Assembly: GCA_964016885.1 (NCBI GenBank)
Contig: OZ024751.1
Span: 7,316,001-7,380,000, forward strand
Length of the DNA: 64,000 bases
Reading direction: 5' to 3'
Source: Eledone cirrhosa
Taxonomy: Eukaryota
The translations under genes and the position numbers were made by a program. Below, one piece after another: positions 5,171-61,045 of the stretch; position 1 is the first letter of the stretch, and every line of letters begins with the position of its first letter. The notes beneath the pieces are model-generated. The model searched no databases. It saw only the letters and a list, made by a program, of their open reading frames with translations, and was not told where the DNA came from.

Positions 5171-5460
5171 TGCGTGTGGCTGAATGGTTAGAGAATTGGA
5201 TTCACAATCTTGAGGTTGTAAGTTCGATTCCTGGACCGGGCGATGCGTTATCTCCTTGAGCAAGACACTTTATTTCACGTTGCTCCTTCTACCTGGAGCT
5301 GCCACCGATAGATAGTATTAGCAACTGGAAAGACCGACGAAAACATAGTTTCTTCTGTCCGATTTGACGAAAGTCGATCTATTCTTTCTTGGGTAATTAT
5401 AAAACAGGGTTACGTTGATCATAAACAGAAAATAGAGGACCGATTCGATTCCGGTACTGC
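5171..5460 (+). mobile_element. tRNA-derived SINE
   Basis: A-box-like TGGCTGAATGG and B-box GTTCGATTCC. The body is shared with 45897-46102 and 53838-54003. Confidence 0.8.
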
Positions 5461-6702
5461 CTGCCAATTCCTTGTCACCGCCATGAGAGACTATCCGGAA
5501 AATGCACGCACGCACACATTTAGAATCAACAGAAATCCAGCCTGGAAATCTTTTAAAGTTAATTTATTGGCGCAAAAATCCTATTTACATTTCAATGGCC
5601 CAGTTATATCATCCGATCCTGATGTAAGACGTTGGTGTCATCATCAGGTTCAGATTAGTAAACTAGTTAATCAAGACCACGATAAAGAAAACACAAGCAA
5701 AGAATAGAGAATAGCCTAAAGTGGAATGTATGTTGGGATATTTCAATTTTCTTATATGCCTTCCAATTTCAGTGTAGATTCACTATTGTATATATATATT
5801 TGTCATGTAACCGGATTTCCTGTTCACATTTTGTTAAAGTAAAATTTTAGTGCCTTAGTTTATGATTTGTATATACAACTTTCTTTTCTTCAGATACACG
5901 CAGTATTTGAGGATTCAAATAGTCAGTTTGTCAACAAGGACTGCACTTCTATGTTCCACACAAAAAATGTTAACGATCTCCTCGCACTGAACCTGATAAA
6001 GATCCAAAGTTTGTATTTTATTATGCTGTTCGTTTCTATCAATTATAAGCTCCAAAGTTTTGAACTATGTTTGTAAGGATTGGCAAGATAACTCTCCCCT
6101 TTATTTTCGAATTATCTTATTTCATACTAAACACCAGTCGACAATTTCACAAGTCACATACACTTTGAACTTAAGGAGAGTAGATTTGAAAAAAGTTGTG
6201 GTAAATTTAAAACAGCTTTTAATTATGGAGATAAAAGGAAACATCGACATAAACAGACAGAAACCTAAACAGAATATCGAGATTATTAAATTCTGTTCTA
6301 TGTTAGAGTTAGACAAAATACAGAAATAGTTGAAATTTCATGAAACTTGATGTCGTTGCCAAATTCATGTTGTGTTTCTGTTGCAACATAGTAACTCCAA
6401 TTACTACACTGCCAACAATATTGGTAGGGTTATATTAGTAAGTGTGAGGAAAGTTTCTTTAGTATATCTGCAACAAGGTAATTTTAAGTAGCACACGCAA
6501 TTTATATGTCGGTATGTGTCTTTATATACATGACACGGACAAGTGATGTATGATTATATATATATATATGTGTGTGTATGTGTGTGTATTTATAATGTGT
6601 ATATATATATATATATATATGCGTATATGTAGTGCATGTATGTGTATTTATATATGTATGTATAGTATATATATGTATAGTGTATATTTATATATATATG
6701 TA

Positions 6703-6790
<88 letters not shown>

Positions 6791-7457
6791 TATATATGCA
6801 TATTCATAAAGTTGGACGAACTTAAGACATTTATTTACACTTCACTCAAACACACATACATATACTTAAACAAACGTAATCAAAATTAAAGTAAAACGAC
6901 ACAAATAGTTTCCGGTAAATTTTCATATTGGCATATAATCAAACCTATTAGATTTCTAGATTAGAAATAGTAGCTTGTACCGAAAATAACATTTAGTATA
7001 TAATATCATCTCATAGTTAATTAGTAACAATTAAAACACGCCACATACAATTTCAACTATTAATTACACCTTTAATCAGGAGCTATTTTTGTAATTCTTC
7101 CTTCGGTTAGGTTTATAAATTATCATTAGTTTTCCTCGAAATATGCATTGTGAACGTTATCGAATTTGCATTTATAAATAATCATCCTATTATTCCTTAA
7201 TGATAAAATAAAATGAGATTTACCTTCAACAAAACTTCACCAGTATGTTGTCTATAACACGTTCGATTTGATCTTAACATTATAAAACTACTCACTAGGT
7301 AGCATAAGGTAGTTCACTCTAATGAACTCAATGTTCTCTTCAGATTACCATGAAACATTAGAAAATGCAATAGATCTGGTTTTTGAATGGGTAAACAAAA
7401 AAACATACAGTCCTCTGCATCATTGCAAACTTTATTGACCACCTAAATGATAGACTG

Positions 7458-7610
7458 GGCGGCGAATCAGCAGAGTCATTAGAACGTCGGATAGAATCTA
7501 TGTTATTCGTTCCGACACTCAGCTCACTGAGTTCAAATCCTGCTCAGGTCAACTTTGCCTTTCATCCGTTCAGGGTTGATAAAAAAAATGTCTAGTACTG
7601 AGGTCGATTC
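7458..7610 (+). mobile_element. tRNA-derived SINE (GTCAACTTTGCCTTTCATCC core family)
   Basis: GAGTTCAAATCC B-box plus a core shared with about ten other copies in the window. Confidence 0.75.
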
Positions 7611-8782
7611 TTCCTCTATATCTCTTTCTATCTTTCTCTGGAACAAATCTGCTGTAATGAAGAGGGATGGGCTCCACCAAACAGGTTTACCATGTCCAAG
7701 AAACGACGTATGTCAATACGGCGCCCCTACAATTCTATCACGAGTTACGGGACCATGCATACCATACAAATGATAAACTATACTTGTGAATTGACCCATC
7801 TCATCCAAACCCTACATTAACAGACACACGACTAATAACGTCCTTTCTTTCAAAGTAAGTGATGTCGCCTATATGACTGTTTTCAGTCCCTTGTAGTCCG
7901 TACCACAGTATGGTCGGAGACGAATCAAACAAAAGCAATAAGAGAATATATATATAATTATATACGAATGTGTATGTATGCATGCATATGCATATATGTA
8001 TATATATGTATATATATATATATATAGATATATGTATTATATCAGTTCGCTCTCCAGTGCTAATGGTAAGATGTAACCCAGTACAACCTGTTTCATGGTT
8101 GGGTCGTCGGCGACTAAAGCGGCAAGCTTGGTGGGGATGGTGATATTTGGAGACCCTGCGGGATGAAATTCAAGACCCAGGATAGGGCAGAAAACCTCAG
8201 CAGAGTTAACAGCCATCCAAATAGTACCTTTCTTTTTTGTTAACCTGGGAGTGAAAGGTCCCCCAGTTGTTGTCACGACACCTTTCTAATAGAGGGAAAC
8301 TCTGAAAAAAAAAAAAATTACCTGCGGCTTCGGAAGCCTTCGATGATGTTGACCACTTCTCCTTTTGGGGTAGTGATTTCGATGCTCAAAGAGTGGGATT
8401 GGTCGAGTGCAAGGCATTTCCCCACTTCAAAACTTTCAAAGCACAGGCTTGTTCAGGATCTGTCATAATTGTGTATGGCTGGCCGTACCTGAAAGTGCAC
8501 CATTCTCTGTAATCTGACGAGCGATTGTAATAATCTTAGCAGATTTTACAGCCATCATATGTACGTATATGAATATGTTTACACGTACATTTACATATAC
8601 GTGTAATATTGATGAGTTTGAGAAAGTGTACGCAATAGAAATGAAGAATTACATTATTCATTCCAATGAATTTGAAGGGAGTTGTGTACCTCTGGAGTTA
8701 AACCTGTGAAATAGCAGATGGGAACATGTCTCAGCCATATGCCATTATATATACACATACATACATATATGCACATAAATAA

Positions 8783-12499: not shown

Positions 12500-14470
12500 T
12501 TAGGGAGAAGTGTTTAGACGGGGTCCGTATTTGTTAATGAAGTAAGATTCCTTGCTGATGCGCTGGGTGTGGGTGGCATTATCTTTAAATTTGTAGATGG
12601 GAAATATTCTGAAGTTGGGATAATTTTGGGCGGCACAGGCATCAATGTGTTCACTCAGTGGTATTTTCCTGTATTCCCATATTTTAATTTGGGATCTATG
12701 GACAGTCATGCGTTGGCGGAGGCTGTTTTTGCTCTGGCCTATGTATTGTTCTCGACAACCTGAACAAGTTAATACATATATTAGATTTTCCGATGCACAT
12801 GTGTAATTGTGTTTTACTATAAAACGTTGTCCATCTTTGAAATAGAATTCCGAACCCTCTATTAGGTTGATGCAAATGCCACAGTTGGGTCTATCGCATT
12901 GTTTTACAGTGGGTTTCGTTGTTTTGGTTGGCAGTACTTTGGCATGTGTTAAGATGTTTTTCATTGACTTGGATTGTCTTTTGCTCTTTATGATATCGTG
13001 TGTTCGTAGAATTTGGTTCATTCTATGGTCCTTTTTCAATACAGGGATGTTGTGGAGGATGGTGTCAAAGGCCTCATTGTTGAGGGGGTTGTGTGTGGAG
13101 ATGTATGGAAGAGCTTTTAGTTTTGGTTGATTTACTTTAGGGTGTCTAAGGTCCTGGGTACTGAGTTTTAGGGCACGTTGGATTCCATTGTCAATTAGTG
13201 ATGCAGGGTAGTCCCTGCCTATGAGTGTGTCCTTTAGTTCTTGTAGCCGTAAGTAGCAGATGTTTTTATTGGAGACTATAGTACAGATTCTCTTGGCTAA
13301 GTTGTAGGGAATATTAATTTTAACGTGTCTAGGGTGGCAAGAGTTGAAGGGGAGGTATTGCTTGGAGTCTGTGGGCTTGTAGTATATGTCTGTTTCTATT
13401 TTTTTGTTATGGATCTTAATGAGGATGTCGAGGAAGGGGAGTTGTTGATGGCTGTATTCCATCGGGAAGTTAATATTTGTGTTGAGCCCATTTATGAGGG
13501 TGTGAAATTCTTTAAGTTTTTCGATGTTTTCGTGCCAAAGGATGAAGCAGTCATCTAGATATCGCTTCCAGTTCCTTTCAATGTGTAAGTGGAGGGTGTT
13601 TCCAAATTTGTTTACGACTTTAGTGTAGAGGGTGATTTCCAGGTATCCCATGACTAGGTTGGCATAAGTAGGGGCTGTTTTCGTTCCCATAGCGGTCCCA
13701 GATTTCTGCCTGTAGGGTTTGTTATTGAAAACGAAGTAATTGTTCTCCAAGATAAATTTGAGTCCCTCTATCACGAATTCTTTTTTGATGCGTTGTGGGA
13801 GTTCATTGTGGAAATTATCCAGCCAAAATTGGATAGCTTCTATTCCTAGGTTGTGGGGGATGTTGGAGTATAGGTTGACTACATCGAACGTCACTAGTAG
13901 GGTTTGTTCAGAAAGTGGCATATTAGGGAGGTGATTGAGCATATCTAGGTCGTCCCTTATATAGCTTTTGATGTGCTTGAGGAAGGGTTTGAGAAAGGTA
14001 TCAATGAAGTTGGTAAGACGGTGAGTTTCGCAAGCGGGGCCTGCTATTATAGGTCTTAATTTGAGATCATTGGGTGAGGGGACATTGATGACTATGTCTG
14101 TGGTTTCCTTGCATGCCTTACTGATTGATTCGCTTTTATGTACTTTAGGGATACCGTAGAAAAGGCTGGATTTACTTGTGAAGTCTGTGATGAAGCTGAA
14201 TTCCTTGTTAGTGAGTCCTTCTTTGTATTGGTTGATTAGAGTTTTTAGGTTTCTCATAATTTTCTGTTGATTGTAGTGTTCAGACTTTTCGTAGTATGTT
14301 TCGTTTTCCAAAGTGGAGAGCGCTAAGTTGATATAGAATTCTGTCTCCATTAGGACTACTGTACTCCCTTTATCAGCCTCTTTAATTGTAATGGTTCTGT
14401 CGGTTTTTAATCTATTTAATTCTTCCCATTCTTTCTTGTTGAGGTTTGGCTTGTGTTTTTGTCTGTGCAA
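12500..14470 (-). CDS. Penelope-like reverse transcriptase-GIY-YIG endonuclease (656-aa open frame; N-terminus cut by one stop)
   Basis: RT motifs IKEADKG, FYGIPKVHK, LRPIIAG, TFDVVNLYSNIPH, GTAMG, RYLDD. Cys linker CDRPNCGIC, as in Neptune-type PLEs. Endonuclease NLIYVLTCSGCREQYIGQS. Upstream LLSKGLKFTPTP near 14670-14705 is separated by a TAA near 14535. Confidence 0.93.
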   Translation of the reverse strand: MHRQKHKPNLNKKEWEELNRLKTDRTITIKEADKGSTVVLMETEFYINLALSTLENETYYEKSEHYNQQKIMRNLKTLINQYKEGLTNKEFSFITDFTSKSSLFYGIPKVHKSESISKACKETTDIVINVPSPNDLKLRPIIAGPACETHRLTNFIDTFLKPFLKHIKSYIRDDLDMLNHLPNMPLSEQTLLVTFDVVNLYSNIPHNLGIEAIQFWLDNFHNELPQRIKKEFVIEGLKFILENNYFVFNNKPYRQKSGTAMGTKTAPTYANLVMGYLEITLYTKVVNKFGNTLHLHIERNWKRYLDDCFILWHENIEKLKEFHTLINGLNTNINFPMEYSHQQLPFLDILIKIHNKKIETDIYYKPTDSKQYLPFNSCHPRHVKINIPYNLAKRICTIVSNKNICYLRLQELKDTLIGRDYPASLIDNGIQRALKLSTQDLRHPKVNQPKLKALPYISTHNPLNNEAFDTILHNIPVLKKDHRMNQILRTHDIIKSKRQSKSMKNILTHAKVLPTKTTKPTVKQCDRPNCGICINLIEGSEFYFKDGQRFIVKHNYTCASENLIYVLTCSGCREQYIGQSKNSLRQRMTVHRSQIKIWEYRKIPLSEHIDACAAQNYPNFRIFPIYKFKDNATHTQRISKESYFINKYGPRLNTSP

Positions 14471-15000
14471 GTGTTGGTAAGGGAAATTTGTGATGTGTTC
14501 ACAGAATTCGTCCAGGATTTTATTTCTACCTTTTTAAGGGGTGTAATTGCTTCTATTTCTGGCTAATGATTCATCCTCATTGTACTGGTCGAATAGTTGT
14601 TCACTAAGTCGTAACTTTCTACAGAAGTCTGTGATGTCTTCCTTCATTTCATAGTAGTTAGGACGTAGTGGGGTCGGTGTGAATTTAAGACCTTTGGAGA
14701 GTAAGTTGATAAGGTTGGGTGTTGTTCTGCACTAGTAATTGATAATTTTTATTACTATCGGTTTCTTCTCCCTGTCTTGTGTTATTTTGTTTGCCTGTAT
14801 CTGTGTGCTGTGTCTAAATTGTTTTGACCAATAAATTTTGCTGGAGCCACCTTTTTAACATTTTAACATAAAAACAGTCTTTTATTCCTAATTATTCTTT
14901 TATTCCTAATTAAACCATTTTTCAACTGTGAACAATTTGTCTGCATTTTCTATTCGGTTTACCAATATATAATAACTTGTGTGTTACATCTCTATTCTTT

Positions 15001-18854: not shown

Positions 18855-21800
18855 ACCACCAATAACTCAAACAAGGAATCCACAAATCTGCCGCTTTTCC
18901 CTGCGAGACAGATTGTGTTTACACCGGGATTGTCCCTTTACCCATCTCCCGGGGACCCGTCGGACAAATGAAAATAAAATTAAAAATAAAAGCAAAAACA
19001 AAAACCATAACCTACATAAAAATAACCACTACCACAGTCACCAACAGTCTTCTAAACAGGAAACTTCTTCCTTTTTTTTTAGCCATAATGAATCTGGCAA
19101 AAGAACTGGAAAAAAACATTCGAGCTATCACCCAGCACCACCCTCCACTATCACCACACTGCACAATCTCCCATTGCTGCCATTAACAAACAAACAAATT
19201 AACAACACACCAAAACAATTAAAACCATCCACTCTCGCCTCTACATTTTTGCTTAACGCCCAAGGCATCAGCCCTTCCACCAATACTCAAAAATGGAAGA
19301 TCAAATTCCTGGAGGACTGGATTGATGTCCATCCAAACCACATCCCTTTCTTCGTCCTCACTGAAACCCATCTCAGTAACCTCCACTTGGAAGCCGAGGT
19401 GAAAGTGAAAAATTTCAAAGCCATCCGTGCTGATCGCGCTGGCAGAAGAAAGGGCGGAACTGCCATTTATGTCCATAATTCTTTCTCAACAGAGGCTATG
19501 AACATATTCACTAATGGATACTGTCAGGCAGTCACTGTATTCAGTCAAACCAACAACCTATTAGTAGTTGGGCTCTATAGGCCACCCCAAACGCCTGTAC
19601 CATGCTTCAAGGAATGCCTCAACAGCATAAAGTGTTTCATCCAAGAGTGTCACCCTGACAACATCTTAATGATGGGGGACTTCAACCTCCCCGGAGTTGA
19701 CTGGTCCACAAACAGCCTGCCACCAGGTTCTTCTGCCTCAACCTCTGACAGGGAAGCTGTGAAATCGCTTCTTGACTACATGGATGATTTCTTCCTATCC
19801 CAACTGGTGCTCGAACCAACGAGGTGCCACAAAAACGTCCTAGACTTAATTTTCAGCAATCACACTGACAATATCCACAATATTGCAGTGGAGAAAACTC
19901 TAATCTCTGATCATGACATGGTTCTCTGTGATCTGAGATTCCACCGTCCAATATACAAACCCACTGTCATCTCTCCTGTCCATCCGTTTGACGCTATGGA
20001 TTTCCACAATGCAAACTGGGAAGCGATCAGTCATGATCTTGCACATGTCGACTGGTCCTTCACGCACACTCATACACCCACTAACATCAAAAAGTCCTGG
20101 CAGACATTTGTGGACACTGTTACAAACATATGTGCTAAACACACCCCATTAAGAACTATAAACAAATCTAAGAGCAGAATCCCTAGAAATAGAAAAACGC
20201 TCATCAGAAAAATTAAGAGAACGAACAAAAAAATCAACAAGCTGAAATACCGTCAGCAGCAACACATCAACTTGACTGCCATTTCATCACTAGAGATTAA
20301 AAAACATAACCTCCAAAACAACATAATGTCCCTCATCAACAATCAGAGAAGAGCTGAAGAGGCCTGGGCCATTGAGAAGATCAAACTCAATCCCAAAGTG
20401 TTCTTTTCATTTGCAAAAAAACACAAAATCACTGGCTCTACTGTTGGCCCTCTAATTGATGAAAATGGCACTCTTCAAGACAATGCTAAAACCATGGGTG
20501 AGATACTGCAGAAACAATACTGCTCTGTTTTCAGCAATCCTGATATGGCCGATCTGGGCTGTATCGGCGATGTTACTCCCCATTACACCTTATCGGACAT
20601 AACGTTTGGCGCCCCTGATGTCTTGGCGGCAATAAAGGAAATCAAGCATAATTCAGCAGTAGGTCCCGATAGTTTACCTGCTTGTGTCTTGAAGGCGTGT
20701 CAACACCAACTTGCATCTCCTCTTGCCAATCTGTGGCGGAACTCACTGGATGCTGGATATGTGCCAGAAAACCTTCTATCCCAGTGTGTTGTCCCAGTTT
20801 TCAAAAAGGGAAACAAATCCCTTGCCGTGAATTACCGTCCAATCTCACTCACCTCTCATATCATTAAGGTATTTGAGAGAGTGGTGAGATCGCGAATGAC
20901 CCACTTCCTTGAGAGTAACAATATGCTGAACTCCAACCAGCATGGATTCCGTAATGGAAGGGATTGCCTGACGCAGCTACTGCATCACTTTGATGACATT
21001 TTGAGAGCCTTGGGAGAGGGTTCCAACACTGATGTTATCTACCTTGATTTCAGCAAGGCCTTTGACAGGGTTGATCATAACATTCTACTGAGAAAGCTGT
21101 CCAATATTGGTGTCACTGGAAAGCTGCTGCAGTGGATCAAGAGCTTCCTGTCAAACAGAACCCAACATGTTGTAGTTGAGGGAGTCAAATCCAGCCCAGC
21201 CAATGTCAGTAGTGGGGTCCCACAAGGCACTGTGTTGGGCCCACTTCTCTTCATCATCTATATTAATGACATCACTGACATCATCAAACACAGCAACATT
21301 AAAATTTTCGCTGATGATTCCAAGCTCCAAAAGGTCATCAATGGCGTGGATGACCGGATAAGCCTTCAGTAAGACCTACTGGCTGTTACCCAATGGGCGG
21401 AAAAGAACAACATGTTACTGAACGAAGACAAATTCGAACTGATCCACTTTGGAAAAGAGGATGCTCTGAAACTCCCGTACTCCCTTCCCTCCGGGGAAAC
21501 TCTCGTGGCATCTAACAACATCAGAGACTTGGGAGTAACCGTGGACAGCAACATAAGCTGGACCACGCATATAAGCAGCAAAGTTGACATGGCCCGCAGA
21601 ATGTGTTCCTGGATCCTCAGAACCTTCCAGTCGAGAGATTCCCGCACCATTATCCTCTCTTCTCTACTTTTGCCCGACCACACCTTGAATACTGTTGTCC
21701 ACTGTGGTCTCCCCACACGAAACAAAGTATCATGAAACTTGAAGCTCCTCAAAGGGCAATCACGAAAAAGATAGATGGCATGTCAGACCTTGACTACTGG

Positions 21801-22279
21801 GGTCGATTAGAAAAGCTGAAACTTTACTCACTCCAACGTCGCCGTGAGCGTTATATTATCTGCATGATGTGGAAAATGTTCCATCATCACTGCCCAAATG
21901 ATGTTGGCATCGCCTTCAAGATACACCCAAGGCTTGGGCCCCGTGCTATCCGTCCCATTCAAAAATCTAAATCGCAACTCATAACAACAATACGGCACAA
22001 TTATTTCACCTCAATCGGCCCTGCTCTCTTCAACATCACACCAGGACACGTCAAAACAGAAACTGACCACACAAAATTCAAGAAGTCTTTGGACAAATTC
22101 CTCCAAGTAATCCCGGACAAACCACCCACACCCGGATATGTCTCCGCAAACAGTAATTCTCTTCTCGAATGGGCCATGGTGCCCAGATCCTGAATTGAAA
22201 GACTTCGCCAGGTGGTGCTATTAAGTTAGACATGGCCTGGGTCAATACTGGTCAAAACATTTCAAAGTTATTCAAAGTT

Positions 22280-25969: not shown

Positions 25970-28134
25970 TAGTAATAATAAGAAATTTGAAGACTAAAAT
26001 CCAAAGAGGGCTCGATAAGGATAAATATATATGAAATATATAAGAACCGTAGAGCAAATATTTATTAAAATAACAGATTAAAGTTTAAGCAAAGAATCGC
26101 TGCTTTCACACTTAACGGGATTTTCTGAAGCTAAAAAAGTCAATCTATAAACGCAGAAGTGGATATTTCAAAAACCGTTGCAACCGGAGGAAGACAAGAA
26201 GACGATACTTTGATTCGTGAAAACGTTCGCTGGCAAAGAACGGCAAAAAACGAATAAAACGTCATTAATAGCAGCGGTGAAAAACAATTAGGCGCAAAGA
26301 CAGAACCACGTTTATGGTATAAAAGAGGTCGTAGACTAATGTTCTCTTAGGTGGTGCATAGAGACGTTCTCTGGCAATGAACGAAAAAACGAAGATAATA
26401 CGTCATATGTGGAGCGTGGAGAACAATAGCACGCAAAGACAAAACCACGTAAATGGTATAGCAGAAGTCGTAGACTAAAATTCTAACTAGGAGACCAAAT
26501 GAATCTCCGCTACAGAGTTAAGAACAAAATAAATAAATACAATACAGAAGTAATAGAAATAAATAAATACATACACGCAAACAAATACGCACATACACAA
26601 GCATACGCAAAACCTTACTATAGGTATACAAAACCACGCGCATATAAATGTGTGTGTTTGTGTATGCGTGTATACAAATAAATAAATAATTATATAAACG
26701 TATATAAATAAATAAATACGTATATAACAAGCGCACACACATACCTACATATAAATACACGAATGTTCGGAGACGTAAGTCAACTAAAACAAGAAGTACA
26801 CAAATACACACACCCACCATACGTACGAACCTGCATACTCACACAGACGCAAAACTCACGTATACACATAGCCAAACCCTATGTACCAGAAAATATAAAA
26901 TTATACGCCATAACAATCAAATATACGTACGAGAAGGTATACGTACCTTCACAAAACATACGGGTAATATATACTTACCTATGCAAATAAGTAAAGAAAT
27001 AAACAAAGCATATACATAGCTCCCACATCAAGACGTAAAATATCCACATATAGATCGTACGATCCGTTAGGGTATAACGTGGGGCTGTAATACAGGAAAG
27101 TTTTGTGCAGTTTATGTTTACAAGCCGAAATTGCCTCAGATTTTTGTTTAAGATGTGGTCTGTGGTGTAGAGTATTTCCAGGGCCTCAGCGGCGCAGAGG
27201 TCGCAAGGTCATCTATTTCCGTTATACGATCTAGCCCTAGCTAGGATCTTCCAGTGTAACTTATATTGGGTGTGGTTGTCTTTAAGACTCCAGATATAAA
27301 CTGAAAGTGACGTCATATTCCTTCTTAGAGGGTAACGAAAAGAATGGGTATGCATGTAAAGACGCTGCTTGAAACTATTGGCGGTTAACCCTATGTAGGC
27401 CCTACGGGACGTGGGTCTTACAACCTTACATTTGTAGACAATGTTACTAGAGAGCCATTTCCCGGATAGGGGGCAATCAGCCCGATTCCTACAATTACAG
27501 TTAGTACTAACTACAGGGTTGCACGTGTTCCTACGGCTAGGTAGTTTAGCTAAATTTGAAGCTGTGATGTTATGTGCAAGGTTAGGATCGTAGAGTAAGA
27601 AATTTTAATAGTATTTCTATTAAAAATGTTACTATATTTATGTGTAGGGGGAAAATGCTTCGTAATAAGGGAAAGAAAGATCTTAGCTAATGGTGTGGCT
27701 ACCTCCATATTATATGGTGGGCTATACCAACAAATACGACGGGATCTATTTCTTCTAGGTCTATTTTAATACTCTGTATATGCTACCTTATCGATAAATC
27801 CACTTCGAGCAAGAGCTTCATTGTAATAAGTGGAATGGTCGTTGAAAATACGCTCGTTGGTGGAAAGACGGGAAAGCCTCAACGAAACGTTTCTTACCAG
27901 GTTCTTGGTTAAGCTGGCAGGATGGTTGGAATGCTTGCTTATGTAATTAAGCGTATCATTCGGCTTTCTATACGGGTTGCTAGCAAACGTTTCCACCAAC
28001 CAAAGTATCGTCTTCCTCCGGTTGCAACGTTTTTTGAAATATCCAGCTCTGCGTTTACATATTAACTTTGTTAGCTTCAGAAGATCCCGTTAAGGGTGAA
28101 AGCAGCGATTCTTTGCTTAAACTTTAATCTGTTA

Positions 28135-28504: not shown

Positions 28505-28549
28505 AATATTGCTGATGAGATGTAACAACATCGAAACTAGTCCAATATT
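28505..28549 (+). ncRNA. Canonical minimal type-I hammerhead ribozyme
   Basis: Stem I AATATTG/CAATATT (7 bp); CTGATGA; stem II GATGT-AACA-ACATC; GAAA; ACTAGT stem III; GUC triplet (cut after 28542). Confidence 0.92.
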
Positions 28550-28970: not shown

Positions 28971-29015
28971 AATATTGCTGATGAGATGTAACAACATCGA
29001 AACTAGTCCAATATT
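28971..29015 (+). ncRNA. Canonical minimal type-I hammerhead ribozyme (second unit)
   Basis: Identical to 28505-28549, 466 nt downstream. Confidence 0.92.
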
Positions 29016-37409: not shown

Positions 37410-37465
37410 ACTGCTATATATATTTCGATGATAGCCATTGAATGGCTATGTCCTCATCAGGCAGT
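37410..37465 (-). ncRNA. Type-I hammerhead motif in a probable PLE 3' end (about 37363-37700)
   Basis: Reverse complement ACTGC CTGATGA GGAC-ATAGCCATT-C-AATGGCTAT-CATC GAAATATATATA GCAGT: 5-bp stem I, long stem II, AUA triplet. Upstream on the same strand a frame reads FPDGLN, resembling a PLE C-terminus. Confidence 0.75.
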
Positions 37466-46419: not shown

Positions 46420-48170
46420 GTAGTATAGTATGACTGTTGAAAATATATAGTATAGTATAGTATTACTGTTGAAAATATATAGTATAACATTACCGTTGAA
46501 AATATATAGTACAGTATTACTGTTGAAAATATATAGTATAGTATAGCAATACTGTTGAAAATATATAGTATAGTACAGCATTACTGTTGAAAATATATAG
46601 TATAGTACAGTATTGCTGTTGAAAATATATAGTATAGTACAGTATTGTTGTTGAAAATATATAGTACAGTATTACTGTTGAAAATATATAGTATAGTATT
46701 AATCTTGAAAATGTATAGTACAGTATTACTGTTAAAATATATAGTATAGTATTACTGTTGAAAATATTTAGTATAGTATATTATTACTGTTGAACATATA
46801 TAGTACTAGCTGTGGTACCCGGCGTTGCACAGGATAAGGTATTTTGGAACGCGGGCCACCAACAGACCTAATCGTGGAAAAACTGCATGCCTGGACAATA
46901 TGTAAAGAAAATAAATCGAATACTCTGATGGCTGGATGATCTTTAAGATTTTCCTCGATGAAGTAGGAAAAATGCAGGTTTTCACTTAATATGGGCCCTG
47001 CGGGATCAAGAAAATGAATATTTTTTATGTGCACAATATGCCTTGAAATTTCGGGATAAAACGGCTAGACGTAACGCCTCCAAAAAGCCCTAAGAAGCTG
47101 AAAAAGGTTTTTCACCTAATGCGGGCCCTAAGCCATGAGAAAGTTGAATTTTCTTTGCTTACCGTATGAAGAAGAGACTGGCTAATACATAGTTACAATT
47201 TCAAGGAAATCGGTCTGACCTAACCCCTCAAAAAACCCCTAAAATTCTTAAAAACGCAATTTTTCACCCAATGCGGGCCCTATAAGTTAAAAAAAAGTTG
47301 AATTTTTTATGTGCTTAAAACTCCCTGAAACATAAGTAATACATATGTAAAGTTTGAAAAAAATCGGTTGGCTACTTCTCGAGTTTTATCTATTCAAACT
47401 CACACACACACACACAGACAGACATCCTCAGGGAAGTGACGTAATGCAGACAGACAGACATACAGACATATATTATAAGGGCGCGACGTTATATGTATGT
47501 ATCAATCTAAAAAGAGAAAGACTAAGAATTATATAGCGAGATCGCTAAATGCGGTCCCTAGGGCATTGAACAATTAAACTTTTTGTTTTGCTCAGAACAT
47601 ATATATTACACGTGTAAAGGTAGAAAACAGTCGGTTTGTTGGTTCTCGAGTTTTAGGGATTCGAACTCACACACACACAGACAGGCATCCTCAGTGTTAT
47701 ATATATAGATAGTATAGTATTACTGTTGAAAATATATGGTATAATATTACTATTGAAAATATATAGTACAGTATTAGTGTTGAAATATATATATATAGCT
47801 GACGTACCTAGCATCGATTGGATAAATAGACGATGAGCCGTCTGTGTAGTATAGTATTACTGTTGAAAATATATAGTATAGTATAATATTGCTGTTGAAA
47901 ATATATAATGTAGTACAGTATTACTGTTGAAAATACATAGTATAATATTACTTTTGAAAACATAGTATAGTATTATTATTGAAAATATATAGTACAGTAT
48001 AACTGTTGAAAATATATAGTATATTATTACTGTTGAATATATATAGTACAATATTACTGTTAACAATATATAGTATAGTATTAATGCTGAAAATATATAG
48101 TATTAATGTTGAAAATATATAGTATATTATCGATTTTGAAAATATATAGTATAGTATTACTGTTGAAAAT
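46420..48170 (+). repeat. 27-32-bp minisatellite (TAGTATAGTATTACTGTTGAAAATATA)n in two blocks
   Basis: Blocks 46420-46804 and 47711-48170, split by an inserted element. Confidence 0.9.
46805..47710 (+). mobile_element. Non-autonomous Helitron/Helentron-like element
   Basis: Starts ACTAGCTG..CCCGGCGTTGCACAGG (terminal hairpin), has internal subrepeats and CAGA/CA microsatellite, and ends TTATATATATAGAT. It interrupts the minisatellite. The class is assigned from recalled terminal pattern only. Confidence 0.6.
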
Positions 48171-48674
48171 ATGTACACGAATATATAATTATACATATAA
48201 TTAATTAAATGTTGGTCAGAAGCGAAGTCAATGCAGACAGGCTGTCATGCAGACATATATTATAAACGCGCGACGTTATAGCTATGTATCTATCTAAAAA
48301 GACAGATTACGGAAGAGAGAGGAATGTCGGATTGTGTATATTATATATAATAAAGTACCAGTAATGTAATTTCTGGCCTAGTGCCAAAAATAGAAACACT
48401 TATACTTCTTGTTTTATACAACTGTCAATAACATGTTTATGCATGTATATAAACGTATATTTACGTATAATAGAATGCAGTAGTAACATGTACATATTAA
48501 ACTATCACTTATTTATGCTACTGTCACTATATAAATATATATATGAATGCATATATAGGGTATTTTGCAATACACTGTATGTTTAATTAAAAGCATTTCG
48601 AAGACCTTAGGCTATTGTTTTAGAGTAGTGACAGTCTCACTTACTTTAAATTTTCAGCAAACAAAGGGAGATAA

Positions 48675-48719
48675 AGCTGACAGAGCTCTGTTTCGTACTT
48701 TTTGGTACTTATCAAAGCT
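48675..48719 (-). ncRNA. Intact hammerhead, U3:A8 variant, family E
   Basis: Reverse complement AGCT TTGATAA GTAC-CAAAAA-GTAC GAA ACAGAGCTCTGT C AGCT. Confidence 0.85.
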
Positions 48720-49012
48720 AAGTACTCCACCTGTTTGCTGACAATCATGAATGTTTGATTCTTATAGAATTCTAGTAATAATCAGGAACTGATTATACAG
48801 AGCGGTTGCCGGTCAAGCTTTTAATTAAGCATACATTGTATTGCAAAATACACTATATATACATTCATATATATATCGCTATTTCAGACAACCAATTCTA
48901 ATTTTAAATTTCTGCTTGACCGGCAACAGCTCTGTATAATCAGTTCCTGATTATTCCTAGAATTCTATAAGAATCAAACATTCATGATTTTCAGCAAACA
49001 GGTGGAGTACTT

Positions 49013-49057
49013 AGCTTTGATATGTACCAAAAAGTACGAAACAGAGCTCTGTCAGCT
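49013..49057 (+). ncRNA. Hammerhead family E (A9->U mutated)
   Basis: AGCT TTGATAT GTAC CAAAAA GTAC GAAACAGAGCTCTGTC AGCT. Confidence 0.7.
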
Positions 49058-49333
49058 TTATCTCCCCTTGTTTGCTGAAAATTTAAAGTAAGTGAGACTG
49101 TCACTACTCTAAAACAATAGCCTAAGGTCTTCGAAATGCTTTTAATTAAGCATACAGTGTATTGCAAATTACACTATATATACATTCATATATATATCGC
49201 TATTTCAGACCACCAATTCTAATTTTCAATTTCTGCTTGACCGGCAACCGCTCTGTATAATCAGTTCCTGACTATTACTAGAATTCTATAAGAATCAAAC
49301 ATTCATGATTATCAGCAAAGAGGTGGAGTACTT

Positions 49334-49378
49334 AGCTTTGATAAGTACCAAAAAGTGCGAAACAGAGCTATGTCAGCT
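49334..49378 (+). ncRNA. Hammerhead family E
   Basis: AGCT TTGATAA GTAC CAAAAA GTGC GAAACAGAGCTATGTC AGCT. Confidence 0.8.
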
Positions 49379-49535
49379 TTATCTCCCCTTGTTTGCTGAA
49401 AGTTTAAAGTAAGTGAAACTGTCACTACTCTTAAACTATAGCCTAAGGTTTCCGAAATACTTTTAATTAAGCATACAGTGTATTGCAAAATACACTATAT
49501 ATAGATTCATATATATATATCGCTATTTCAGAGCA

Positions 49536-49596
<61 letters not shown>

Positions 49597-49984
49597 GCAC
49601 ACTATATATATATATATATATATACACAAACACTATATGTACATATACACGCACACACACAGGTAGCGAAGTCAATGCAGACAGTCAGACATAGAGAGAC
49701 ATATTATAAGAGCGTGACGTTATAGCTATGTATCTAACTAAAAAGACAGACTAGGAAAGAGAGAGGAATGTCGTATAACCGGAAGTGTTGACATTTGAAC
49801 ATTTTAAAGAAGTGAATATTTAATTAAACAATAACATATCTTTAATCTTTTAATGAAAGTTAGTAGACAAAAATCGTTCACTTTCTTACTAGGAAAATGT
49901 TACATCTATGGTGCAAGTTTGGTACGGTTTGGTCCAGACGGTTAGCGAAACGTTTGTTACATACATACGGGCGTCAGATTTATT

Positions 49985-50351: not shown

Positions 50352-51780
50352 GACTCTACAGAATATTTTGATATCACGTCTCATAAATACCCACAAAGAG
50401 TAAAAGATATGACCGCTTTTGAACTAGATTTAGTTAATTTAATCAACCAAATCAAATTCCGTAAGTACTCTAACTCTTTTCAATCTAAACTCTCTAACGA
50501 TATTTCAAAATTTAAATCTAAATTTAAATCTAAATATAAGTTCGTTATCTCTGATAAAACTAAAACTTATACGAAGTTAATAATAACTTACATCTCTTAA
50601 CAGATAGCATCACCTCTAAATACCAAATAGCTAATATAAACACATATAATACTATTAATACGGAAGCCAAAGAATTAGCTATTTTTTTTTGAATAGACAA
50701 TAGAACAGAAAAAAACTTGCTAAAGGTACTGCCTATATCACCTTCAAAGATCACAAACATGATTTTATTAATCGTCCTAGTTGTAGATTAATTAACCCTG
50801 CTAAGACTGAAATCGGCCTTGCTAGCAAAAAATATTAAATGATATAAACAAACATATTAGAAATAAGTCTGAATTACTCCCATGGATAAATAGCTCTTCT
50901 GTAGTACATTGGTTTAATAATATTAAAGATTAATATAGTTCTAGATTCACCCAATTTTAGATGTAGACTTCTACCCGTCTATTACTCACCCTCTTTTAAC
51001 GAAAGCATTAAATTTCGCTAGAATCTTTATCAATATTTCGGATATTGAAGAGAATATCATTTTGCATGCTAGAAACACTTTACTGTTTACTAATAATGAC
51101 ACTTGGGTAAAACAATCAAACCCAGAGAACCCATTCGATGTCTCAATGGGTTATTTTGACAATGCAAACCGGTGTAATTTAGTTGGCCTATTCCTCCTAC
51201 ACACACTTAAAGAGAAATTCCCTAACCATACCTTTGGGCTTTATCGTAACGATGGTCTAATACTGTCCCATACCACTATAGGCCATAACTTAGATAGATT
51301 CAGGAAAGACTTAATAAAAACCTTCGCTAATATTAATCTTTAAATTACCATTGACACTAACAGTTCTAATGTTAATTTTCTAGATATAAACCTAGATCTG
51401 CCTACTGCTTCTTATAAACCGTACCATAAACCTAATGAAAATTTAAGATATATAAATAAATGCTGTTGCCATCCTCCTATAGTTTTAAAAAATCTTATCC
51501 TTAATATTAGCCGTAGGATCTCCACCCTCTATTCCTCAGAAGCTATTTTCAATAACTCCAGATATATCCTGTTGTCCCGCAGCCGATTTTATGTATGTTT
51601 ACTTGCGTATAATTTGTACCCATTTATTCATACGGCTGGTTTTTATATATGTACGTATGCTGTAGGTGTGCATATATGTGTATACGAGTTTGTATATGTA
51701 TACGAATGCATTCGTATGTGCGCGTGTATGTGTATATGTGTGTGTATGTGTGCTTTTACATCTATATTTTTTACATACTA

Positions 51781-51834
<54 letters not shown>

Positions 51835-52930
51835 GTGTGTATATATATATGTATGTGTGTATATATATATATATGTATATGTATATATATAGATATATAT
51901 ATATATGTATTTATTTTATATATAAATATATGTATGTATTTTCCCCCTACTATAATAAAGCCCTTCAAAATAGCGGATTTAGCGAACCGATTAAGTACAT
52001 ACCCAACAATACTAACTCCTTTAAACATAATAATAGTAAAAGAAAAATAATCTGGTTCACACACCCCTACTCTTTTGGAGTTAAAACTAATGTAGGCAAA
52101 ACTTTCCTACAGCTGTTAGATAAACATTTCCCTAGAACACATAGATACTATAAGATCTTCAATAGAAACTGTGTCAAAATCAGCTTCTCCTGCGGTCCCC
52201 CTATTAAATCTTATATCCTCAATAAGAAAATACCCAGAGAATATCAAAATTGCTCATGTAGAGTCTAAAGTGAATGCCCATTACAAGGTAAATGCAACAC
52301 CAAAACCAGTGTATATGCGGCTAAAGTGACAACCAACAGCAACAACCTACCAGCCACCAGCGAACGATATGTGGGTATGACACGAGACAAATTCAAAACG
52401 CGGTATTACACACATGTCGCATCTTTCCGACATCCTGAAATAGATTTACAACAGCTCTGGCTAGCAGAATATGGGATTTGAAGGACCAAGGTATCCAATA
52501 TAAATCAGGTTGGTCAATGCTGAACCAATCTTAAGAACATGCAAGAGGACAAGAAGATGCGCACTCTGCATAAGTGAAAAATATTGGATTTCCAGAACTT
52601 TAGATCGCCAAAAACCTGCTTAAATGCAAAAACAGAAATTTACACCAGTTGCCCACACATGAAATCACACTTGCTTTGCAGCTCATATAAACTTAACTCA
52701 CTTTCAGACACTTATCCTCCATAAACTATCGTTATTCACTTTCCTTAACTTACCTTCTTTACAGACTTCTCTTTCTGATTTACTTTTATTTTATTTTTAA
52801 CTTTATTTTTAGTTCACATACACTAGTGAAACCCCTTGCTTTTTAATTCACTTGCATTATATCTTCACTATTTTACATATTTAATTCCCCCTTTCCTTTC
52901 ACTACCTGATATTGCAGTTCACTTGTGTTT
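50350..52930 (+). pseudogene. Decayed Penelope-like element (RT + GIY-YIG)
   Basis: Fragments [87 protein letters not shown]. Many stops and frameshifts. Confidence 0.88.
51553..51945 (+). repeat. Internal copy of the sequence that follows the element's 3' end (52932 onward)
   Basis: AACTCCAGATATAT..TGTTGTCCC.CAGCCGATTTTATG occurs at both sites and interrupts the frame EAIFNNS|PYYNKAL. Confidence 0.85.
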
Positions 52931-60454: not shown

Positions 60455-61045
60455 CAAATTTACCCTTATGTTATATGGATAAATTAGAGAACATAGAAAT
60501 AAAAATAGAATCTTCACACAGAAAAGACGCAATGGTTAGACAAATCACAGAGGCAATGAACATAAATGAACTCCAACCATAATTAAATAGAAAACATGAA
60601 TGGAACAGCAACATCACAACTTACAATTAAGGACAAAATGTAAACACACACACACACATAGAAAAAAACAACCAACCAGTAACATATAAATAAACAAATA
60701 TAAAGACACACAGACACCCGGTTGTAACACATGCGCAAACTAAGCACACAACACACACAAAAACAAGATGGCGTAGGACAGAGCAAAGGAGAGGCACAAA
60801 TACAAAGAACAGAATCCCATTCACTGAAGAGGTCACAGAATGTGTGACGAAAGAACTTTGAGAATATATGAACAATCATCAGGTTGTGGAACCAACCAAC
60901 CAACTGGTAATTTATGAATTCCTAAATTTATAAATTTAATTTATAATGAATTGAAGGTAAACACCTGGTGCGTGTGTTTCTTATTGGCAACATGACCCAC
61001 CCAAAGTATAACAATATCGGTTTCAACACACGATTTCAGATAAAG
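60455..61045 (+). mobile_element. PLE 3' end (GIY-YIG C-terminus + UTR with hammerhead)
   Basis: RQITEAMNINELQP*LNRKHEWN near 60537-60606, a typical PLE endonuclease ending. The right boundary is approximate. Confidence 0.65.
60819..60865 (+). ncRNA. Minimal type-I hammerhead motif
   Basis: TCA CTGAAGA G GTCACA-GAATG-TGTGAC GAAAG AA CTT TGA: 6-bp stem II, one extra nucleotide after A9, CUU triplet. Confidence 0.75.

Follow-up and report, generated by a model that had tools for sequence, protein, structure and literature searches.

Family E, a dispersed repeat of the Eledone cirrhosa genome, is probably a non-autonomous element, namely a non-LTR retrozyme with insertion ends like those of Penelope-like elements (PLEs), likely copied by Neptune-type PLE enzymes. 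The copy described here lies in the window, i.e., the whole stretch of 64,000 nucleotides that was analysed. Family E copies are dispersed, carry no ORF, have (TA)n flanks, form head-to-head arms and end at two 3' positions, and the pairing of their ribozyme is conserved across subfamilies. Non-LTR retrozymes were defined by Cervera and de la Pena (2020, PMC7229834), who named PLEs as candidate helpers, and vertebrate retrozymes were linked to pLTRs by Li, Clavereau and Pollet (2026, 10.64898/2026.07.22.740005). In both accounts, mobilisation by PLEs was proposed from co-occurrence and pLTR phylogeny. Family E adds evidence at the level of the insertion itself: tails at one end, arms that appear mostly to share a single template and that extend past the cut site, and copies joined directly to Neptune-type ORFs. 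A candidate helper can be named as well, a PLE with an open ORF of 938 aa.

Organization of the Family E Copy in the Window

A repeat scan of the window detected a tandem period of 321 with 2.2 copies at 48817-49537 (94% matches), next to an inverted arm of 0.88 unit (Table 1), in agreement with the approximately 2.2 plus units and 0.9 minus unit counted in a preliminary description made from the letters alone. The minus arm is complementary to the plus units at 97% and 94%, meets the plus arm head to head with a 2-nt overlap, and stops in an AT run at the tail-less 3' end, monomer position 144. The right end lies at position 164, and the insertion shows the same short/long pattern of ends as the family. 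The right-hand tail is slightly shortened; a complete 26-nt copy of it is internal (49198-49223). The preliminary description overlooked the main point, which is that the minus arm and the ends constitute a PLE insertion signature.

Table 1. Parts of the family E insertion, in window coordinates.
Feature	Position	Strand	Description
Inverted arm	48535..48818	-	284 nt, 0.88 unit; monomer positions 182-321 then 1-144
Type I hammerhead, minus copy	48675..48719	-	Predicted cut after C at 48679
Plus arm	48817..49540	+	724 bp, 2.25 units; monomer positions 85-321, 1-321, 1-164
Extended outer stem I	48989..49080	+	About 48989-49007 paired with 49062-49080; encloses hammerhead, non-palindromic
Type I hammerhead, plus copy 1	49013..49057	+	Predicted cut after C at 49053
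Predicted monomer, 321 nt	49054..49374	+	Between two cut sites
Type I hammerhead, plus copy 2	49334..49378	+	Predicted cut after C at 49374
Terminal PLE-type tail, slightly shortened	49521..49540	+	Monomer positions 145-164; this end only
(TA)n microsatellite flank, inferred target	49538..49624		

The three hammerheads have the core UUGAUA(A/U) in a structural scan. The minus copy has an intact U3:A8 core, and its stem I, stem II, and helix III are all palindromic. Both properties had been ascribed to the hammerhead of this family in general, and of the three copies only this one has them in full: plus copy 1 has a U at core position 9 (49023), which we take to be a conserved hammerhead core residue, and plus copy 2 departs from palindromy with a stem II of GTAC/GTGC, a wobble (49357), and a helix III mismatch (49370). 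Watson-Crick pairing at 3:8, G12-A13-A14, A15.1-U16.1, H17, and three helices, as expected for a type I hammerhead, were found in the minus copy and family-wide. A scan of the window against Rfam gave zero matches reaching the gathering score. The AGCT/AGCT stem I, formerly given as 4 bp, is in reality the core-proximal portion of a long interrupted stem I, in which an internal loop is followed by a long non-palindromic helix.

The monomer boundaries proposed earlier are correct as predicted cut sites, and its size of 321 bp falls within the 150-450 bp of metazoan non-LTR retrozymes, as had been stated. It has a GC content of 34% and stop codons in all six frames, and the linear monomer folds with a z of -3.7, better than 100 of 100 shuffles. 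As both ribozymes flanking this monomer are mutated, the locus is unlikely to release it well.

Diverged copies of another short repeat flank the insertion in direct orientation (48220-48330 and 49665-49775) and are not a target duplication. Two AT-rich degenerate minisatellite arrays with 27-32-bp units are located at 46421-46805 and 47705-48172.

Dispersal, Subfamilies, and Conservation of Pairing

The repeat unit of family E is 316-321 bp long, dispersed, and non-coding. When the 3.0-Gb genome was queried with the monomer, 2,455 candidates were obtained; 40 were scored, and the full-length ones were 93-97% identical. The exact 37-nt core pattern gave 261 genome-wide matches and the family-wide ribozyme pattern 1,662, each with 0 in the reversed control. 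Contigs of four runs (organisms A-D), which cannot reveal ends or expression, covered 28-30 of 30 bins at 80% likeness with identical variant positions. Arrays of 6 to ~19 units are also present (L051, L131, and L227).

Several subfamilies were distinguished by their ribozymes: a C3:G8-core subfamily (98 matches, 85-89% identity), subfamilies with a stem II of GCAC/GTGC or GCAT/ATGC (437 matches to a pattern requiring only one change on each side of the stem), and one with a CAATCA loop (335 matches). Stem II reads GCTT/AAGC in a 316-bp array, and stem I loses its palindromy in some copies (AGCC/GGCT). Judging from these patterns, the subfamilies keep the predicted pairing; palindromy of stem II is not kept, and that of stem I not always. 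In an alignment of 15 sequences, 96.9% of the cells were paired versus 28-44% in slid controls, and both sides had changed in 8 of 26 pairs, including core pair 3:8; since the sequences were hand-picked by patterns and are mutually related, this amounts to about six independent events rather than 26. When positions 3 and 8 were both left free, the first 100 matches listed comprised 94 U:A, 4 C:G, 1 C:A, and 1 U:G, giving Watson-Crick pairs in 98. The 'loop' positions of helix III also covary as pairs, from AGCT to GGCC. In the CAATCA subfamily (335 matches), 49 of the 100 matches listed first carry an uncompensated helix III mismatch, and its compensated form has 2 occurrences.

The motif therefore looks selected for catalysis, with the palindromy of all helices incidental to it. 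Given a palindromic helix III, the prior for two more 4-bp palindromes is ~1 in 256, and relatives lose their palindromes freely, so that three palindromic helices are not significant in themselves.

The L051 array (G000:C1:268924500-268932500) contains ~19 family E units in a higher-order repeat with recurring junction positions 263/66, and it is closed by an inverted arm with the same two end positions as the family. A 4.3-kb spacing of two motifs, considered as a full PLE, was rejected, as it corresponds to this 19-unit array. Heterodimer complementation between two reverse-complementary helix III variants was not supported, as the variants were not seen paired within a locus; the arms of one locus are mostly alike in their helix III variant.

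Anatomy of the Insertions

The first analysis covered 92 loci, obtained by fetching 111 and removing 19 that overlapped. Two outward-pointing arms were found in 54 of them and a single orientation in 35; in 2 the 5' ends lay on the outer side, and 1 extended beyond its locus. With 30 further loci added, 74 of 122 were two-armed, and an LTR-type layout was found in none of the 122. The 3' ends (143 in total) fall at monomer positions 140-145 in 65 cases and at 164-177 in 55, so that 120 of 143 belong to two fixed positions 26 nt apart. TA flanks adjoin 87 of the 120 canonical 3' ends versus 8 of 39 5' ends, and the latter are scattered, with variable arm lengths and junctions. Where both ends of a two-armed locus are canonical, one short and one long end are combined in 43 of 51 loci, compared with 25 expected (P about 3e-7). 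Partial tandems, an inverted 5'-truncated copy, a tail at one end, and an AT-rich or microsatellite target were thus all found in family E.

Craig et al. (2021, PMC8557442) describe PLE insertions as partly tandem, with a 5' copy in inverted orientation and a tail confined to one end, and Frangieh et al. (PMC11167929) reported for an active PLE that the tail is the interval between two reverse transcriptase (RT) start sites, with both strands cut and extended. The short and long ends of family E match the tail and inverted 5' copy of the former description and the two RT starts of the latter. On this model, multi-unit transcripts would cut themselves, a step probably favoured in a strand-swapped double hammerhead formed via the self-complementary helix III, and the released unit would probably be ligated to a circle. 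A PLE endonuclease may then nick each strand within a (TA)n tract, and the RT would start inside the unit, near position 144 for one strand and near position 170 for the other. Reverse transcription would run past the cut site and on occasion make more than a single round; the expected outcome is a pair of arms that point outward and whose truncated 5' ends meet.

Many copies have the look of inverted repeats, and the main subfamily carries no signal of editing, with no A>G excess (104 A>G versus 107 T>C). A DNA-level satellite or a fold-back/MITE-like element, whose arms would be terminal inverted repeats and which would involve no RNA step, could be imagined on these grounds. It is extremely improbable given the variable arm lengths and junctions, the scattered 5' ends, the single orientation of 35 of the 92 loci, the 26-nt tail that distinguishes the two ends, and the selection on ribozyme pairing.

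One locus, L042 (1864-2020), has one arm that continues 25 nt past the cut site into a long A run, which may reflect a polyadenylated template or expansion of the A run.

Candidate Helper

PLE ORFs are abundant in this genome, with 10,595 GIY-YIG candidates genome-wide and several ORFs in the window. L211 (G000:C1:145867000-145876900; 5309-8122, minus strand) is a near-intact autonomous PLE with a hammerhead in both flanking repeats. The ORF of its family (938 aa) encodes RT and GIY-YIG and has a CX4CxxC linker, the motif from which the label Neptune-type was assigned. The U3:A8 hammerhead of this family has a palindromic helix III and lies ~145 nt from the 3' end, which reads TTCTAAT, as does the family E tail. 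Short-end/long-end pairs occur here too, with two fixed 3' ends ~65 nt apart, and the motif of the family accounts for almost every entry among the 100 listed first out of 17,400 matches. Autonomous Neptune/Nematis-type PLEs of this genome have the same U3:A8 core and end geometry as family E.

Truncated Neptune-type ORFs directly adjoin family E copies in L139, L249, and L254, and in L130 a family E copy meets such an ORF via a TA run. The copies in L139 and L130 adjoin members of one Neptune-type family, that of L211, whose 5' truncation falls at a different point in each, and the direct junction in L249 is with the ORF of the same family. In L254, family E forms one arm and a different Neptune-type family the second. 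Further, 3' pieces of the L211 family adjoin family E in four more of the 92 loci. Since the shared (TA)n target alone can yield such adjacency, it is the kind of helper that we infer, and the L211-type family is a likely helper of family E in the sense of a candidate. No alignable homology was detected between family E and the L211 family, and apart from the final few bases the 3' sequence of family E resembled that of no autonomous family among the GIY-YIG loci and regions inspected.

The preliminary description placed family E with the retrozymes by unit size, a reading that would not suit a family always attached to a PLE ORF. A retrozyme-like unit without an ORF is borne out by the loci: in 0 of 122 is it the terminal repeat of an ORF, any PLE ORF match is present in 24 of 122, and 5 of these lie within ~100 nt. 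Nor was an ORF found inside the unit, or beside it in a register shared across the 122 loci, as an autonomous PLE would have. The copies might still be read as 5'-truncated ends (solo pLTRs) of an undiscovered autonomous PLE, given that autonomous PLE copies are themselves mostly short truncations with inverted arms, the Neptune-type family here being an example, and that only 46 of the 10,595 GIY-YIG candidates were inspected (30 loci and 16 longer regions; an autonomous partner with the family E unit as its pLTR was found in none of the 46). We consider this very unlikely, as the units are head-to-tail with nothing intervening, two cut sites are passed by 16 of 142 arms, 72 of 142 exceed one unit without an ORF, and in 0 of 122 loci does the sequence continue on the 5' side into a unique stretch common to several loci or into an ORF joined at a constant point.

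Template of the Arms

Rare variants are common to opposite arms in 32 of 409 cases within a locus versus 141 of 13,735 between loci, i.e., approximately eight times more frequently. At a site split about 50:50, which was scored by eye, the two arms agreed in each of 11 independent pairs. The two arms thus appear to derive mostly from one template; a single locus (C1:323315182 and 323315665) has arms from two subfamilies.

Approximately 98-99% of the arms extend through the cut site, which is compatible with either a circular or an uncleaved template. Of 1,061 matches obtained with the first 25 nt, 1,020 keep the cut-site C. Thirty of the 41 variants were sorted by a script into 16 point mutants and 14 truncated starts, and 5 of the latter were reassigned by eye (three internal deletions and two short continuations). 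True starts exactly at the cut site therefore number 9 of 30, against 2.6-3.5 expected from a background stop rate of 0.4-0.55% per base (99 loci, excluding 20 full-monomer loci and 3 arrays). This is roughly threefold above background (P 0.001-0.01), with starts at this site being confounded by microhomology at AGCT.

In the family E copy of the window, a variant at position 157 is present in two plus units and absent from the terminal unit, which is not what a single circle would give. Such unit-specific variants are among the points that would be explained if the PLE mobilised linear, uncleaved multimeric transcripts from genomic arrays, with no circle and with the ribozyme trimming some transcripts. 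The arrays noted above could supply such linear multimers; moreover, an anole PLE used unprocessed RNA as its dominant substrate in vitro, hammerhead cleavage being dispensable for insertion by this one PLE tested (PMC11167929), and 8 of 9 Xenopus retrozyme dimers were uncleaved (10.64898/2026.07.22.740005). We nevertheless regard this alternative as somewhat unlikely, because the compensatory changes, including that of the core 3:8 pair, indicate that cleavage matters to the family, because ~9 of the 30 examined variants begin exactly at the cut site, and because related metazoan repeats have been shown as circles (PMC7229834).

A-to-G editing scars were also looked for and set aside. Their absence from the main subfamily counts against the proposed route; the GCAC/GCAT groups likewise lack them (36 versus 41), and the C3:G8 group shows a weak signal (32 versus 17).

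Folding of the Monomer and the Dimer

Folding was evaluated by ViennaRNA nearest-neighbour energies, which exclude core and tertiary terms. For the monomer of the intact copy, the minimum-energy fold pairs the 5' strand of stem I and the start of the core with helix III; the probability of the active fold is 0.002 (0.2%). For two strands of the same copy, the minimum is a strand-swapped double hammerhead (-76.5 versus 2 x -33.0 kcal/mol). This double hammerhead was the two-strand minimum in 7 of 10 family sequences, failing for plus copy 2, L128, and L179, and the minimum-energy fold of the monomer differed from the hammerhead in 10 of 10. These calculations suggest that the family E monomer is inactive and the strand-swapped dimer active. 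The preliminary description had anticipated that cleavage is favoured in the dimer, and the folding is consistent with this; the reason it gave, that all helices are palindromic, is wrong, because a strand-swapped dimer requires self-complementarity of helix III alone.

The dimer fold is largely generic, as 83% of 96 stem I variants also yielded it. Among 96 equal-GC stems, whose median monomer activity was 0.35, only one scored lower than the native stem I, which kept the dimer fold, and six other palindromic stem I sequences gave monomer activities of 0.18-0.65. The effect is therefore ascribed to the match of stem I to helix III and not to palindromy. The trap of the monomer is not universal, since the C3:G8 subfamily is predicted to be 12-14% active as a monomer. 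When T-variant copies were folded, two of three were rearranged upstream and one had a mutated stem I. In one subfamily, both sides of the inactive helix had changed. An alternative hairpin, GTACTTA/TAAGTAC, was rejected with a pair probability of 0.

A helix III of 4 bp plus a tetraloop could also act as an ordinary hairpin, the ribozyme then being active as a monomer and dimerisation optional. This is a real possibility, albeit one that we hold to be doubtful. The lone helix III hairpin is stable (-1.8 kcal/mol), and the C3:G8 values above and the omission of core and tertiary contacts by ViennaRNA both leave room for it, as does the efficiency with which invertebrate retrozyme hammerheads of shorter helix III act alone (PMC7229834). 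The hammerhead was never the minimum-energy fold of the monomer, however, and the 0.2% activity of the intact copy together with its dimeric two-strand minimum points the other way. Moreover, the helix III 'loop' positions covary as pairs, which argues that a second strand is needed.

A more elaborate version of the dimer model can also be speculated, namely a switch that is off in the monomer and on in the dimer. Its inactive helix would consist of 7 bp between helix III and the 5' strand of stem I together with core U3-U4-G5. A circle would be protected until two helix III palindromes pair in a tandem transcript and free both cores; the circle would then be copied from both sides of the (TA)n break by a Neptune-type enzyme able to switch between the family RNA and its own RNA. 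The low monomer rank of the native stem I and the subfamily with changes on both sides of the inactive helix speak for this scheme, which as a whole is unlikely.

Relation to Known Elements

Family E resembles the metazoan non-LTR retrozymes (PMC7229834; 10.64898/2026.07.22.740005) in its head-to-tail, non-coding unit within 150-450 bp, type I hammerhead, GC content under 50%, lack of an ORF, and co-occurrence with PLEs. It differs from them as described in these sources in being mostly U3:A8, plus a C3:G8 sister subfamily, and in its long, 12-nt self-complementary helix III. Most family E copies are, moreover, short insertions with two arms that lie in (TA)n and bear PLE tails, a layout that these descriptions do not mention; the words 'inverted' and 'opposite' are absent from the main text of PMC7229834. 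Literature searches listed no paper on family E or on two-armed, tailed retrozyme insertions, although supplements may list such families.

Palindromic helix III, U3:A8, and cleavage as a dimer are already known, being published features of PLE ribozymes. Cervera and de la Pena (2014, PMC4209133) described U3-A8 cores and palindromic helix III for PLE hammerheads and gave a dimer model, and a review (PMC6765202) mentions dimer cleavage and insertion beside other PLEs. Family E shares with the PLE pLTR hammerheads of PMC4209133 a short helix I, U3-A8, the palindromic helix III with its dimer model, and opposite-strand pairs 100-700 bp apart. It is distinguished from them by having no attached ORF, a helix III long enough for a monomer hairpin, a helix II of 4 bp, no extra base after position 9, and a long outer extension of stem I. 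The Neptune/Nematis-type EN+ PLEs (PMC8557442) are alike in their partial tandems, inverted 5' copy, one-end tail, and microsatellite targets. The non-autonomous Chlamys elements of the same paper, e.g., MRC1, are similarly non-autonomous derivatives with multicopy head-to-tail insertions. The family E tail is 26 nt, compared with 30-40 for these elements, and canonical hammerheads, which are missing from the Chlamys elements as described there, are present in family E. With U3:A8 and C3:G8 in one family and four versions of stem II, family E offers a natural set of hammerhead variants suited to comparing monomer and dimer cleavage.

Other Elements in the Window

A 677-codon open frame with RT and GIY-YIG at 12500-14533 (minus strand) belongs to a 5'-truncated Neptune-type PLE; copies of its family carry, close to the 3' end, a U3:A8 hammerhead-like motif in which GAAA is altered. 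Broken ORF fragments resembling PLEs of another clade lie at 27209-28089 (minus) and 50386-52268 (plus), and Pfam gave zero matches on the tested pieces of them. The latter fragment is ~850 bp downstream of the family E copy, past TA runs, and is apparently a separate insertion. Canonical C3:G8 hammerheads occur 466 bp apart at 28508-28546 and 28974-29012 (plus); their abundant ~469-bp family, which also has opposed arms, predominates among the 100 entries listed first out of 5,202 matches. Further C3:G8 hammerhead-like motifs were noted at 60824 (plus), recurring in L083 and L190, and at 37411-37464 (minus). A long LINE ORF with AP-endonuclease and RT domains, assigned by eye, extends over 18900-22193 (plus) with a frameshift near 21372, and it is flanked by TA arrays.
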